DNA of 32,000 nucleotides, taken from NCBI RefSeq assembly GCF_016127575.1, contig NZ_CP066018.1:1260001-1292000 (forward strand), in the 5' to 3' direction. How positions within the stretch are numbered: the first letter of the stretch is position 1; each line of letters starts with the position of its first letter. The notes under the pieces were generated by a model that worked only from the letters and a program-made list of their open reading frames with translations, was not told where the DNA came from and made no database searches. Below, in pieces: positions 1,921-32,000 of this stretch. A program made the position numbers and the translations under genes. This DNA is from Cupriavidus necator. Lineage in GTDB: Bacteria; Pseudomonadota; Gammaproteobacteria; Burkholderiales; Burkholderiaceae.

Positions 1921-2753
1921 GCGCGCTGCTCCGTGCTGTCGGCGTGCCAGAACGGCATGCCGACCACCGGGGTGCTGGCCTGCGCCACCTCGCGCTCGGG
2001 CATCGGCCCGGCCAGGTAGGCGGTGCGGCCGGCCTCAACGGCCTGCGCAAAGGCGCGCGCCATATTGACCGGGTAGGCGGCCTGCGCCACCGCGGTATTG
2101 AGCAGCACGCCGTCGTAGCCCCACTCCAGCACCTGCGCCGCATGCGACGGCAGGCCCAGGCCGGCATCGACGATCAGCGGCGTGTCGGGCAGGCGCTCGC
2201 GCAGCACGCGCATCGCGTGCGGGTTGACCGCGCCGCGGCCGGTGCCGATCGGCGCGGCCCATGGCATCAGCGCCTGGCAGCCCACGTCGAGCAGGCGGCG
2301 GCACAGCACCAGGTCCTCGGTGCAGTACGGCAGCACCTTGAAGCCTTCCTTGATCAGGGTCTCGGCCACGGCCGGCAGGTTCAGCGTATCGGGTTGCAGC
2401 GTGTAGTCGTCGCCGATCAGCTCCAGCTTGATCCACGGTGTTTCGAAGACCTCGCGCGCCATCATCGCAGTGGTGATCACTTCCTGCGCGGTGAAGCAGC
2501 CGGCGGTATTGGGCAGCACCGGCACGTCCAGCGCCTTGAGCATCTGCCAGAAGGCCTGGCCGCCCTCGCCGGCGCCGACCGCGCCCTGGCGGCGCAGCGC
2601 AACGGTGATCATGGCGGGCCTGGAGGCCTGCACGGCCGCCTCCAGCGTGGCCGGCGACGGGTAGCGCGCGGTGCCCAGCAGCAGGCGCGAGCCGAACGAC
2701 TCGCCATACAGCACGAACGGGTCGCGCAAGGTTTCGGAAGGTTCGAATGTCAT
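1917..2753 (-). CDS. thiG: thiazole synthase ThiG
   Basis: 278 aa with ThiG hallmarks: [50 protein letters not shown]. Confidence 0.95.
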
Positions 2754-2756
2754 GGG

Positions 2757-2963
2757 TCAGCCTCCCGTCACGGGTTGCACGAGGTCGATGCGGTCGCCGG
2801 CCGCAAGAATGGTGTTGGCGTGGGCGCCGCGCGGCACGAACTGGCCGTTGACCGCCGCGGCAAAGGGGGGCGCGATCTGCGCCGCGCTCACCGCGTCCGC
2901 CAGCGTGGCGGAATCGGCAAGGGCGAGCGGTCGGCCGTTGAGCAGGATTTCCATGTCAGTCAT
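2757..2963 (-). CDS. thiS: sulfur carrier protein ThiS
   Basis: 68-aa ubiquitin-like ORF ending in GG, located between thiO and thiG. An internal Met at codon 4 is an alternative start. Confidence 0.85.
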   Translation of the reverse strand: MTDMEILLNGRPLALADSATLADAVSAAQIAPPFAAAVNGQFVPRGAHANTILAAGDRIDLVQPVTGG

Positions 2964-4296: not shown

Positions 4297-6372
<2,076 letters not shown>

Positions 6373-6577
6373 TCATCCAACGGGGTGAATTTAAGCACAA
6401 GGTGCCGGTGGGCGCCAGTGCCAGTTCCCTGCCGTTTGTGGTGCCACACCTGTTCGAAAAGGTATCGAATCGCGCATGCTGCAGCGCAATAATCACTCAC
6501 AAGGGGACAACCGCGCACTCAAACGCCGGCGACGTGCTCTACCATGCAGTAAGACGCGTCCATCTTCCGATCCCGCC

Positions 6578-12786: not shown

Positions 12787-13950
<1,164 letters not shown>

Positions 13951-14001
13951 GAACTTATTCTCCAGGTTGGCTATTGCGTGCCAGCCCGATCAGTTCATGG
14001 C

Positions 14002-14090
14002 GGCGACGCTTTAGCGGTATTTCAAGCAGCCCGGTTAGAGCCGCATCGCCCCGCAAGTTGTCAGTTAACTCGGCGATACACGCTATTATA
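14002..14090 (-). promoter_or_regulatory. metK promoter -10 box plus a structured 5' leader motif shared with metX (candidate riboswitch)
   Basis: In order on the minus strand: TATAAT (14090..14085); P1 AUCGCC/GGCGAU (14077..14072 / 14050..14045) closing a 21-nt loop GAGUUAACUGACAACUUGCGG; hairpin GCGGCUC-UAACC-GGGCUGC; the block AAAUACCGCUAAAG (14022..14009); and GUCGCC (14007..14002), which mimics the P1 5' strand. The same order and spacing occur in the metX leader. Confidence 0.55.
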
Positions 14091-29755: not shown

Positions 29756-30933
29756 GCGCCGATCTCCTCTGCGATGCGGTCGTAGTAGGCGCGCATCAGG
29801 TTGTGATAGCGCGGGTCGTCGAGCAGGAAGGCATCGTGGCCGTGCGGCGCATCGATCTCGGCGTACGAGACCGGGCGCTTGTTGTCCAGCAGCGCCTTGA
29901 CCAGCTCGCGGCTGCGGCTGGGCGCGAAGCGCCAGTCGGTGCCGAAGCTCGCCACCAGGAAGCTGGCCTGGGTCTGCGCCATCGCGCGCGTCAGGTCGCC
30001 GCCGAAGGCCAGCGCCGGGTCGAAGTAGTCGAGCGCGCGCGTGATCAGCAGGTAGGTGTTGGCGTCGAAGTATTCGGCGAACTTGTCGCCCTGGTAGCGC
30101 AGGTAGCTCTCTACCTGGAACTCGACATCGAAGGAGAAGCGGATGTCGTCGGTCTTCAGCTCGCGGCCGAATTTCTCGGCCATGTCCTCGTCCGACAGGT
30201 AGGTGATATGGCCGATCATGCGCGCCACGCGCAGGCCGCGCTTGGGCTTGACGCCATGCGCGTAGTAGTTGCCGCCGTGGAAGTCGGGGTCCGACAGGAT
30301 GGCGCTGCGCGCGACCTCGTTGAAGGCGATATTCTGCGCCGACAGCTTGGGCGTGGACGCGACCACGATGCAGTGGCGCAGGCGTTCCGGGTACAGCAGG
30401 CTCCAGGCCACCGCCTGCATGCCGCCCAGGCTGCCGCCCATCACCGCGGCGAACTGCGTGATGCCGAACGCGTCGGCCACGAGCGCCTGCGCATTGACCC
30501 AGTCTTCCACCGTCACCACCGGGAACGCTGCGCCGTAGGGCGCGCCGGTGGCCGGATTGAGGCTCATCGGGCCGGTCGAGCCGAAGCACGAGCCCAGGTT
30601 GTTGACGCCGATGACGAAAAAGCGATTGGTATCGAGCGGCTTGCCGGGCCCGACCATGTTGTCCCACCAGCCCACGTCGCGCGGGTCTTCCGCATAGACG
30701 CCGGCCACATGGTGCGAGGCATTGAGCGCGTGGCACACCAGCACCGCGTTGGAGCGGGCCGCATTGAGCGTGCCATAGGTCTCGACCATCAGGTCGTAGC
30801 CGGCAATGGACGAGCCGTTGCGCAGCTTCAGCGGCTCGGCAAAGTGCATGCGCTGCGGCGCAACCACGCCGACCGAATCGGGCGGCAGGTCGAACGCGGC
30901 AGGCGCGGCGGTCGGCAGGGCGACATCAGTCAT
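29752..30933 (-). CDS. metX: homoserine O-acyltransferase MetX (acetyl versus succinyl donor not determinable here)
   Basis: Alpha/beta hydrolase with MetX conservation ([25 protein letters not shown] nucleophile elbow, HGHDAFLLD). The start is either ATG 30933 or ATG 30960. The latter directly abuts the U-run of the leader terminator. Confidence 0.92.
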
Positions 30934-30960
30934 GGAATCCGGCCCGTGGCGAACGGGCAT

Positions 30961-31009
30961 AAAAAAACCCGACCGGCATTTGCGTATAAAGCGTCGCAGC
31001 CAAGTCGGG
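30961..31009 (-). terminator. intrinsic terminator/attenuator inside the metX 5' leader
   Basis: The minus strand reads CCCGACU...GGUCGGG (7 bp including one G-U, large loop) followed by UUUUUUU, ending 1 nt before the first in-frame ATG of metX. Confidence 0.6.
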
Positions 31010-31070
31010 ATTCACTGGATTCCTTGCGGGATTCCGCGTGCCGGCGCCATCCACTACCGTGGAGGCATGG

Positions 31071-31182
31071 GGCGCCGACCCAACCTCTTTAGCCGCATTT
31101 GTAGTGGCAACCCGGAACTTGGTCCCTTGGCTGCCGCGCGCCCGCAAGCCAGTCATCAAATCGGCGCGACCGGGCAATTATA
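31071..31182 (-). promoter_or_regulatory. metX promoter -10 box plus a structured 5' leader motif shared with metK (candidate riboswitch aptamer)
   Basis: In order on the minus strand: TATAAT (31182..31177); P1 CGCGCC/GGCGCG (31168..31163 / 31142..31137) closing the loop GAUUUGAUGACUGGCUUGCG; an extended hairpin GGCAGCC..GGGAC-CAA-GUUCC..GGUUGCC; AAAUGCGGCUAAAG (31100..31087); and the P1-5' mimic GCGCC (31075..31071). Confidence 0.55.
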
Positions 31183-31208
31183 GAGCAATCGGCCCGGCAT
31201 GTTGATTT

Positions 31209-31388
31209 AGAACCCATTTCACATTGAAGATGGGCACGCGTTCAAGCCAGGCGCGGCGCAGGCTAGGCGCGGGCCGCCGGCCTTGGTCATTCCAAGGTCA
31301 AGGCCCGTAACGACGCATGCGCCGCGCCTGGCTTGAACCCGAAGGGAAGGCTGCTGCCGGGCCCCTTCTTCATTGTGAAATGGGTTCT
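31209..31388. repeat. 180-bp nested imperfect inverted repeat between the slmA stop and the metX promoter
   Basis: Outer arms 31209..31235 / 31361..31388 pair at 24 of 27 positions. Inner arms 31240..31260 / 31318..31338 are a perfect 21-bp inverted repeat (GTTCAAGCCAGGCGCGGCGCA). The 57-nt centre contains a further CCTTGG-N5-CCAAGG hairpin. Confidence 0.8.
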
Positions 31389-32000
31389 TAACCCAGCAAG
31401 ACCCTCAGGTGCGCCTCGGCATGGTCCGACGGCGACTTGCGGAAGCCGCTCTTGGCATAGCGGTGCCACTGGCCCTGCACCGCCGCCATGATCAGCGCCG
31501 CGCGTGCGGGAATATCGGCATCCGCCGGGAACGCGGCCTGCGTCACCGCCATCTTCAGGCACTGGCGCAGCGAGGCCTCGATGCGGTCCACCACCTGGTT
31601 GATGCGCTCCTGCAGGCGTTCGTGCTCGCCCACCAGCGCCTCGCCGGTCAGCACGCGCGTCATGCCAGGGTTCTTCTCGGCAAACGACAGCAGCATGCGC
31701 ACAATGGCGTGGGCCTGGCGCAGGCCGTGCTCTTCCTTGTCGGTGATCTGGTTGATCAGGCCGAACACGGTCTGCTCGATAAAGCCGATCAGGCCCTCGT
31801 ACATCTGCGCCTTGCTGGCGAAATGGCGGTACAGCGCCGCCTCCGACACGCTCAGGCGCGCGGCCAGCGCCGCCGTTGTGATCTTCTCCCCGCGCGGGTG
31901 CTCCAGCATGGTGGCCAGGGTCTGCAGGATCTGCACGCGGCGCTCGCCCGGGCGCGGGCGCTTGCGCGCCGGCGTGGCCGGCGGCTGGCCTCCGTCCTGC
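31388..32000 (-). CDS. slmA: nucleoid occlusion factor SlmA (TetR family), 5' end beyond the right edge
   Basis: The frame is open to position 32000 (..KRPRPGERRVQILQTLATMLE..). Strong similarity to recalled E. coli SlmA (ITTA.LA..VSEAALYRHF.SK, NPG.TR.LTG.AL, RINQ...RIEA.LRQ). TAA stop at 31388..31390. Confidence 0.85.
   Translation of the reverse strand, partial: QDGGQPPATPARKRPRPGERRVQILQTLATMLEHPRGEKITTAALAARLSVSEAALYRHFASKAQMYEGLIGFIEQTVFGLINQITDKEEHGLRQAHAIVRMLLSFAEKNPGMTRVLTGEALVGEHERLQERINQVVDRIEASLRQCLKMAVTQAAFPADADIPARAALIMAAVQGQWHRYAKSGFRKSPSDHAEAHLRVLLG

Follow-up and report, generated by a model that had tools for sequence, protein, structure and literature searches.

What regulatory RNA do the metX and metK leaders of Cupriavidus necator share, and what does it sense? 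The question is raised by a stretch of 32,000 nucleotides (nt) of this bacterium (contig NZ_CP066018.1, positions 1,260,001 to 1,292,000; hereafter the window), where an earlier reading of the letters alone had proposed that a structured RNA in the metX leader recurs upstream of metK, as a candidate riboswitch for S-adenosylmethionine (SAM) or methionine that it could not place in a known class. Our analysis indicates that both leaders, which lie on the minus strand, are very probably SAM-sensing riboswitches of the SAM-II/SAM-V pseudoknot superfamily, with a P3-like hairpin placed between helix P1 and the A-rich loop L3. Regulation of metK is a stated gap: Leyn et al. (2014, PMC4239095) reported that no regulator of the gene is identified in beta-proteobacteria, their own search for one having failed. 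Among the Burkholderiales species sampled, about nine in ten are now seen to carry a SAM-II-like RNA before metK, those of Bordetella, Achromobacter, Variovorax and Acidovorax included.

A leader common to metX and metK

Read 5' to 3', both leaders present the same order of elements: P1, a U-rich loop L1, the motif UUGC, the P1 return strand, a hairpin (P3), an A-rich stretch, the heptamer GCUAAAG and a tail. The pattern CTTGC-N(20-50)-AAANNNNGCTAAAG matched exactly twice, in the metX and metK leaders, and in none of 100 shuffles. A covariance model seeded with 30 short-form metK-type leaders, Cupriavidus excluded (model R1), recovered the window metK leader at 44.9 bits (E ~2e-11) from a seed drawn entirely from other genera. 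A second model, R2, seeded with short hairpin-free metagenomic elements of the metX type, aligned to the metX leader in two parts, of 32.7 and 20.4 bits, on either side of the hairpin, and to the window metK leader as half-matches, while R1 scored 20-44 bits with short metX-type elements, aligned over their full length. Since each model recognizes the other type, the two types are homologous. The P3 hairpin is followed directly by AAAU in both leaders, and compensatory changes among Cupriavidus and Ralstonia relatives keep both P3 stems. Two loci of the metX comparison, L168 and L180, are disregarded.

The structured leader with one element order that the sequence-only reading had described for both genes is therefore borne out by the window sequence, the pattern search and R1. 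Its inventory of the metX leader (TATAAT, an 8-nt interval, a 6-bp P1, a 20-nt loop, a two-tier hairpin, a 3' block and GCGCC) is present in full as sequence; the role that it gave to GCGCC is another matter, treated below. Its count of 12 identical positions out of 14 in the 3' block is correct; this block is AAAUGCGGCUAAAG (AAAUGCG-GCUAAAG) in metX, terminating at 31087, and AAAUACCGCUAAAG (AAAUACC-GCUAAAG) in metK, terminating at 14009. Two details had to be amended. The spacing between TATAAT and P1, said to be equal, is 8 nt in metX and 7 nt in metK, and the loop identity of 15 in 21 drops to 12 in 21 in an ungapped count, the higher figure requiring a 1-nt shift.

The link to metK proved real and wider than claimed. 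We surveyed Burkholderiales for the motif in a sample of 80 metK loci, each from a different species. In 74 of them the heptamer GCUAAAG is found 60-120 nt before metK, and R1 placed the whole motif just upstream of metK in 73 and nowhere else within those loci. The bearers include Cupriavidus, Ralstonia, Trinickia, Paraburkholderia, Comamonadaceae, Alcaligenaceae and Oxalobacteraceae; six of the 80 loci, e.g. those of Usitatibacter and Methylobacillus, lack the motif in the R1 search. The consensus of this metK type runs, in its 5' part, through TATAAT, (G/A)UCGCC, GAGUUA...GA(A)C..ACUUGC(A/G), G and GGCGA(C/U) and continues, after an insertion of 0-60 nt, with an A-rich stretch, C(C/U), GCUAAAG, CGU(U)CGCC, the box GGC(A)ACGC (box B) and the Shine-Dalgarno sequence (SD). 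About half of the leaders have extra sequence inserted where P3 would lie, L3 measuring 25 nt or more in 39/70.

Covariation among the 30 short-form metK-type leaders agrees with the pairing scheme. The full structure is 96% paired, compared with 36-42% when the 3' partners are slid out of place, and double-sided changes occur in all three helices P1, P2a and P2b. P1 is 98.3% paired with three covarying pairs (pair 1-35 is GC in 18, AU in nine and CG in one; pair 2-34 is UA in 25 and CG in five). P2b is 100% paired, its pair 28-49 being AU in 17 sequences, GC in 12 and GU in one, with none unpaired, and pair 18-60 of P2a is AU in 23, GC in five and GU in two. A register-free offset scan found the P2a diagonal from (-3,+3) to (-6,+6) paired in 100, 100, 100 and 89%, with two to three pair types from (-4,+4) on; this yields a P2a with a 2x2 internal loop, the same as read from the SAM_alpha consensus. 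UUGC and GCUAAAG are invariant in the 30 sequences. The helices noted in the sequence-only reading are thus kept paired by compensatory changes, P1, P2a and P2b by covariation and both P3 stems as described above, and its two sequence blocks and P1 pairs are retained in orthologous leaders, with GCUAAAG unchanged and P1 covarying.

Several marks set the metK type apart: GAGUUA in place of GAUUUG as the third strand of L1, one extra nt between P2b and P1, a purine-pyrimidine covarying pair that lengthens P2b, and a fixed P2a. GAGUUA is found in 64 of 71 leaders; its first U has become G, and the two U's of the U:A.U triples are retained. The base before UUGC is C in 68 leaders, as in SAM-II, and A in three, as in SAM-V (A18). 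Taken globally, the metK copy appears to belong to a diverged and apparently unannotated SAM-II/V subgroup, widespread before metK in Burkholderiales. No curated family for it was found in Rfam and no published report in the open literature, a search that did not extend to current SAM-II alignments; for a link between SAM-II and metK in beta-proteobacteria only Leyn et al. turned up, most subscription journals lying outside the literature searched.

Relation to SAM-II, SAM-V and the metXZ element

In the proposed aptamer, P1 closes a loop whose 5' part (GAUUUG in metX, GAGUUA in metK) would occupy the major groove as a third strand. The 3' part of the loop, UUGC, pairs with the downstream GC-U-AA of GCUAAAG to form P2b with a bulged U, and the tail 3' of GCUAAAG pairs with the middle of L1 to form P2a. 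SAM would stack on the bulged U and be cradled by a U:A.U triple, locking the tail in the pseudoknot. Sequence and covariation bear out this pairing architecture, and homology with the solved SAM-II and SAM-V structures points to SAM as the ligand of both leaders.

The SAM-V structure (Huang & Lilley 2018, PMC6061858) gives these positions a role. Its third strand, G5-G11, places U8, U9 and U10 in the major groove of P2; the bulged U47 pairs with the SAM adenine, the U20:A48.U9 triple encloses the sulfonium, and SAM is bound at its amino-acid end by A50, which faces A18. At the 3' end of P1 a P3 stem-loop starts directly and is followed by stacked adenines making A-minor contacts to P1 and by the ascending P2 strand. 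In our leaders the core positions that this structure defines do not vary; they comprise the bulged U, the third A of GCUAAA, the U:A.U triples and P3 with the A stack that comes after it. The structure also fixed the register of the pseudoknot. The sequence-only reading had implied that CUU of the loop goes with UAAAG, and the register that we tried first, CUU with AAG and UA bulged, counted well; both were dropped for UUGC with GC(U)AA, where the U is bulged as in SAM-V. Since none of the positions concerned varies, sequence by itself cannot tell the two registers apart. The suspected resemblance to the H-type pseudoknot of SAM-II/SAM-V with an added hairpin was accordingly upheld; the RNA, which that reading could not place in a known class, reads as SAM-II/SAM-V with a hairpin at the P3 position of SAM-V.

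Rfam searches explain why the assignment is easily overlooked. At gathering thresholds (36 bits for SAM_alpha, RF00521, and 41 bits for SAM-V, RF01826) nothing was found at either leader. The sole family above threshold in the window is the thiamine pyrophosphate (TPP, THI element) riboswitch RF00059 at 6278-6379 (minus strand), with 70.3 bits (gathering score 54.3). When matches were ranked by E-value, the metX leader gave two to SAM_alpha that skip the hairpin, 19.8 bits over P1 and the loop and 10.6 bits over the 3' tail; the metK leader gave no SAM_alpha match at E up to 10, and RF01826 matched neither leader at the same limit. The Rfam search suggested by the sequence-only reading therefore returned sub-threshold SAM_alpha signal for metX, none for metK and no clean family hit. 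Likewise, 20 metK loci searched against Rfam yielded nothing at any gathering score.

Relatives without the hairpin behave differently. Our metX-type sample comprises 120 metagenomic elements, mostly hairpin-free. Short elements of this type scored 23-43 bits with SAM_alpha, six of 18 at or above the gathering score, so that the metXZ family overlaps SAM-II by Rfam's own criterion; two long-form elements gave no match. Short metK-type leaders reached 19.6-22.1 bits, aligned over the whole model (positions 1-79 of 79). The match of the window copies is split or abolished because of the 19-30 nt hairpin after P1, and standard annotation would miss both of them together with the whole metK subgroup because they fall below the SAM_alpha threshold. 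In the metX type, GCUAAAG is invariant in 60 sequences, whereas the invariance of UUGC is not informative there, being preset by the search pattern. The outer P1 pair and the P2a pair 20-58 each show six pair types, and the offset scan gave 88% pairing at (-3,+3) and 75% with five pair types at (-4,+4).

Compared with SAM-II, both types share the H-type pseudoknot, the UUGC/GC-U-AA P2b with its bulged U, the A-rich L3, the 2x2 internal loop between P2a and P2b, and the methionine/sulfur regulon; many SAM-II members act through terminators, and the metX-type third strand GAUUUG is identical to the SAM_alpha consensus. Both window copies differ from SAM-II in the hairpin after P1, and the metK type differs further in GAGUUA in L1, the extra nt between P2b and P1, a score of about 20 bits even when hairpin-free, and a conserved 4-5 bp P2a (GAAC/GUUC or GAC/GUC). 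SAM-II was reportedly described by Corbino et al. in 2005 and its structure solved by Gilbert et al. in 2008; SAM-V is said to go back to Poiata et al. in 2009. With SAM-V the leaders have in common the binding core and the succession of P3 directly 3' of P1, adenines and the P2 3' strand; the metK type would also share its translational control. Unlike them, SAM-V is known from marine bacteria, e.g. Pelagibacter, and holds its SD inside a 2-bp P2a right after the aptamer, whereas the metK SD lies ~45-50 nt downstream and metX has a terminator. The riboswitch for SAM and S-adenosylhomocysteine (SAH), RF01727, is a small H-type pseudoknot with translational control that, like our element, is located before metK, but it is confined to Rhodobacterales and has another consensus, and neither leader matched it. 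The SAM-II long-loops family (RF01726), a variant of SAM-II whose loop is enlarged and which the standard model misses, likewise matched neither leader. The table of Weinberg et al. (2010) lists that family as a riboswitch, for Bacteroidetes and marine metagenomes.

The metX leader is itself a published element. Over window positions 30913-31167 (minus strand) all 255 letters agree with row H16_A0211 in the metXZ alignment that Leyn et al. published (2014, PLoS One 9:e113714). As this row is metXW of Ralstonia eutropha (C. necator) H16, the window comes from that strain or one nearly identical to it. The terminator/antiterminator RNA that the sequence-only reading had mentioned before metX and metZ in beta-proteobacteria was thus described correctly. 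In 35 beta-proteobacterial genomes that element was reported before metXW or metZ, with a pseudoknot, an alternative fold and a terminator (PMC4239095); it has six conserved regions, its pseudoknot pairing region 1 with 4 and region 2 with 6. The metX leader has the same pseudoknot and terminator, whereas the window metK leader is a second, diverged copy. Leyn et al. (PMC4239095) named no ligand, made no reference to SAM-II and reported one copy per genome; they also described metK as controlled by SahR and not by SAH riboswitches. In their alignment most other beta-proteobacteria are hairpin-free, with the plain SAM-II layout GCGCC-GAUUUG-N-GCUUGCG-GGCGC-N-AUAAAU-N-GCUAAAG. The metX copy is therefore already published. 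To count it as SAM-II is to reclassify it, a step that riboswitch researchers had in effect taken before; the metXZ element thereby gains a class and a probable ligand. Three Bordetella rows of their Figure S2 (Bpet0417, BAV3187 and BB4554) seem to hold tandem copies, but these were rejected, as the second copy is identical to another species' row; the appended rows are Tbd_1907, Mfla_1691 and Nmul_A1905, respectively, probably a formatting error of the supplementary file.

Metagenomic metX-type elements precede metX (38 loci), metZ, metH, metA and metK (two loci), as well as a gene of the cystathionine-gamma-synthase family, one for an SsuA-family sulfonate-binding protein and one of sulfite/nitrite-reductase-like type. 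This is the gene set expected downstream of a SAM sensor.

Proposed switching of the two leaders and competing explanations

Folds were computed with RNAfold; the metX leader was folded both at full length and in truncated form, and its tail was either left free or blocked, the latter mimicking capture into P2a. Without SAM, the free tail (AGGUUGG) would pair with the terminator 5' strand (CCGACUU), allowing read-through into metXW. With SAM, the tail would be held in P2a, so that the terminator with its U7 run forms and the operon is switched off. The antiterminator AGGUUGG/CCGACUU appeared only in the nascent fold with the tail free and was lost with the tail blocked, while the terminator was present in all full-length folds (its loop exceeds 8 nt, for which reason a simple scan had missed it). 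Four Cupriavidus leaders conserve CCGACUUG and the U-run. Folding, together with the conservation of the terminator 5' strand and the U-run, suggests that the metX leader would be a SAM-dependent transcriptional OFF switch, in line with most SAM-II riboswitches being transcriptional (Huang & Lilley 2018, PMC6061858). The sequence-only reading had instead let the downstream GCGCC compete for the P1 3' strand, but in every fold GCGCC sits inside a stable local hairpin (31077-31042), and pairing of the tail with the terminator strand is the better-supported antiterminator. In the free minimum-free-energy fold of the metX leader, CUUGCGGG pairs over a long range with CCCGCAAG; this was considered as an anti-aptamer and rejected: the complement is not conserved in C. 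metallidurans and C. pinatubonensis, which have only a local hairpin.

At metK the mechanism would differ. Terminators were found in only two of 70 metK leaders, one of them really an SD:anti-SD helix, and for lack of a terminator control is probably exerted at translation. Without SAM, the tail would pair with box B as soon as the latter is transcribed, trapping the anti-initiation segment in the hairpin loop and leaving the SD and the start codon usable. With SAM, the tail would be captured and the tail-box B hairpin would dissolve, so that GCCAUGAAC could pair with GUUCGUGGC over the GUG start and turn translation off. In minimum-free-energy folds of the nascent transcript, ending just before the SD, tail and box B are paired in 62 of 66 leaders, over 7 nt in the window. 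The openness of the SD is 0.42 with the tail-box B hairpin and 0.22 with the tail captured (39 leaders vs 7, p ~6e-7). We hold the OFF direction with moderate confidence; the decoy step and translational control are put forward more cautiously, as what the folds suggest. A model in which the SD is sequestered at equilibrium was discarded: the SD did not differ between the states and the start codon shifted the wrong way.

One relative argues for the OFF direction by a different design. In contig L102 (L-numbers are labels of relative loci or metagenomic contigs in the comparison set), at 2640-2830 (minus strand), a metX-type aptamer precedes a MetK homologue with 69% identity to the window MetK. 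The terminator there repeats the aptamer's own GCUAAAGCGG, and its 5' strand, CCGCUUUAG, can pair with either copy. It reads as a very clean terminator/antiterminator OFF design, which would support OFF logic for metK elsewhere.

Several observations weigh against the reading of both leaders as SAM-dependent OFF switches. Both window copies score below every Rfam gathering score; SAM binding by the two RNAs is a prediction from homology; and the metK type has lost the first U of its third strand to G, a change that may affect ligand choice. The metX antiterminator adds only ~3.5 kcal/mol, and its register is ambiguous in Ralstonia. Equilibrium folds of the metK leaders leave the SD paired in both states, and the start codon goes from 0.33 to 0.54 open on tail capture, the wrong direction for an OFF switch. 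In the window metK leader the two states differ little (start codon 0.29 vs 0.00 open, SD 0.44 vs 0.56). Finally, the tail in Comamonadaceae and Oxalobacteraceae is strongly complementary to the initiation region (-15.7 vs -7.5 kcal/mol), which the decoy model leaves unexplained.

These fold data are what an ON switch at metK would draw on. There the ligand-free tail would hide the initiation region, and its capture into P2a would free the start codon and raise MetK; or the ligand would be another one, SAH or SAM together with SAH. The opening of the start codon with the tail blocked recurs in 47 leaders vs 5, complementarity of the tail to the initiation region is far above chance in 42 of 70 leaders, and a compensatory change in a non-coding spacer maintains it (GCAGG/CCUGC in L012, GCAAG/CUUGC in L080); the G at the first third-strand position would fit a changed ligand, and SahR regulators in other proteobacteria induce metK on SAH. 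We nevertheless consider this reading unlikely, as the complementarity is missing in Cupriavidus, box B is left without a role despite its conservation, neither the bulged U nor the U:A.U triple that contacts the sulfonium varies, and L102 shows an unambiguous terminator-based OFF design before metK with a sister aptamer. To our knowledge, moreover, all known SAM-class riboswitches before metK are thought to be OFF switches.

A more radical alternative is that the leaders sense no ligand at all, being protein or small-RNA binding sites or plain attenuators that resemble SAM-II by convergence. It could appeal to the sub-threshold Rfam scores of the window copies, to a ligand that is predicted from homology, and to Leyn et al. 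having proposed only an unspecified terminator/antiterminator element. We regard it as very improbable: the positions that contact the ligand in SAM-II/V are invariant in more than 150 diverse sequences while the helices covary, hairpin-free relatives pass the SAM_alpha gathering score, the associated genes are the classic SAM regulon, and no Met-rich leader peptide is evident, the sole AUG of the metK leader being followed by AAC UGA.

Within the riboswitch reading, a further proposal concerns the metK type. Its marks are the third strand GAGUUA, a P2a fixed as GA(A)C/G(U)UC and a conserved tail that can pair with L1, with box B as a decoy or, in some families, with the region of the start codon. 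It may constitute an undescribed SAM-II/SAM-V subclass and the missing SAM synthetase regulator of Burkholderiales. In the boldest version, the U-to-G change of the third strand and the pairing of the tail with the start codon would make it something other than a plain SAM OFF switch, with altered SAM/SAH selectivity or with kinetically timed or ON-type action; we put the proposal forward tentatively, at somewhat less than an even chance. With one tail and three competing partners, the metK platform offers a compact model for kinetic versus equilibrium control. Since C. necator H16 is an industrial chassis, the metK and metX control elements could also serve to tune SAM supply.

Feature coordinates and further elements

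Table 1. Positions of the proposed leader elements and associated genes in the window
Feature	Position	Strand	Sequence, evidence or remarks
metX promoter-like site	31177..31205	minus	-35 TCAACA 31205-31200, 17-nt spacer, -10 TATAAT 31182-31177; 10/12 consensus matches
metX-leader predicted aptamer, SAM-II/V type	31075..31168	minus	sequence, split SAM_alpha match, R2 halves, P3 compensation
metX P1	31168-31163 with 31142-31137	minus	CGCGCC with GGCGCG; closes 20-nt loop GAUUUGAUGACUGGCUUGCG; starts 8 nt after TATAAT
metX L1 third strand	31162-57	minus	GAUUUG
metX P2a 5' strand	31155-51	minus	UGACU
metX P2b 5' strand	31148-43	minus	CUUGCG
metX P3 hairpin	31135-31106	minus	outer tier GGCAGCC/GGUUGCC, inner stem GGGAC/GUUCC
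metX A-rich L3	31105-31094	minus	
metX P2b 3' strand	31093-87	minus	GCUAAAG; bulged U at 31091
metX tail	31086-75	minus	contains P2a 3' strand GGUUG 31085-81
Downstream GCGCC copy, metX leader	~31074-31070	minus	
Stable hairpin H2	31042..31077	minus	CGGCGCCCCAUG...AUGGCGCCG; between aptamer and terminator; includes GCGCC; in all free and constrained folds
metX-leader predicted intrinsic terminator	30961..31009	minus	5' strand CCCGACUUGGC 31009-30999, 3' strand GCCGGUCGGG 30977-30968, U7 30967-30961
metX-metW operon	29144..30933	minus	metX 30933-29752 (ATG at 30933), metW 29752-29144
metK-leader predicted aptamer, diverged SAM-II/V subtype	14002..14090 (aptamer 14077-14002)	minus	R1 score, covariation, P3 compensation
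metK -10	14090-85	minus	TATAAT; 7 nt before P1
metK P1	14077-72 with 14050-45	minus	AUCGCC with GGCGAU
metK L1 third strand	14071-66	minus	GAGUUA
metK P2a 5' strand	14063-60	minus	UGAC
metK P2b 5' strand	14057-52	minus	CUUGCG
metK P3 hairpin	14044-14026	minus	GCGGCUC/GGGCUGC
metK L3	14025-16	minus	
metK GCUAAAG	14015-09	minus	bulged U at 14013
metK tail	14008-02	minus	CGUCGCC; P2a 3' strand GUCG 14007-04
metK putative expression platform	13945..14001	minus	GCCAUGAAC 14001-13993 pairs with GUUCGUGGC 13954-13946, covering GUG start 13950-48
metK box B	13982-76	minus	GGCACGC; complementary to tail
metK SD	13963-60	minus	GGAG
metK (SAM synthetase)	12787..13950	minus	TIGR01034, 601.3 bits

The metX promoter resembles the sigma-70 type and would end at 31177; the scan found one site, against a mean of 0.2 in shuffles. 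The gene that follows encodes a homoserine O-succinyl/acetyltransferase (MetX_succinyl, 685.1 bits), and metW matches TIGR02081 at 278.8 bits. Upstream of the metX promoter, 31388-31936 (minus strand) encode the nucleoid occlusion factor SlmA (NF007015, 291 bits).

Tandem arrangements were seen among the relatives. Some metagenomic contigs carry a terminator-coupled metX-type SAM-II aptamer and, 40-110 nt on, a SAM-V-like aptamer (RF01826, 32-38.5 bits); they are L136 1672-1854 (minus), where the SD stands directly after CUAAAG, L101 2305-2523 (minus) and L086 2643-2859 (plus). A table in Meyer et al. (2009) lists a similar-looking SAM-II/SAM-V riboswitch in the bhmT intergenic region of Pelagibacter. 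L142 996-1167 (minus) holds two tandem aptamers before a MetK homologue. The first is of the metX type with a terminator; the second reaches 44.3 bits with the metK-type model, has CCGCC/GGCGG as P1, and its L1, GAUUUAAGUGACCAACUUGCG, stands midway between the two types.

The Burkholderia small-RNA candidate family RF02424 (Bp2_Cand287_SIPHT) gave 20-45 bits, against a gathering score of 70, antisense to several metX-type aptamers, among other sites at L101 2416-2553 (plus), L086 2616-2748 (minus) and L142 1078-1201 (plus), and may overlap a SAM-II leader read in antisense. In Duganella, L080 3641-3714 (plus) is an SAH riboswitch (RF01057, 60.3 bits) ~1 kb downstream of metK, so that this gene neighbourhood has a metK-type element on one side and an SAH riboswitch on the other. 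Two unrelated RNAs were also found in contigs bearing metX-type elements: a manganese (yybP-ykoY) riboswitch at L138 727-909 (plus, 82.1 bits) and a chrB-b RNA at L135 2595-2651 (plus, 48.7 bits).

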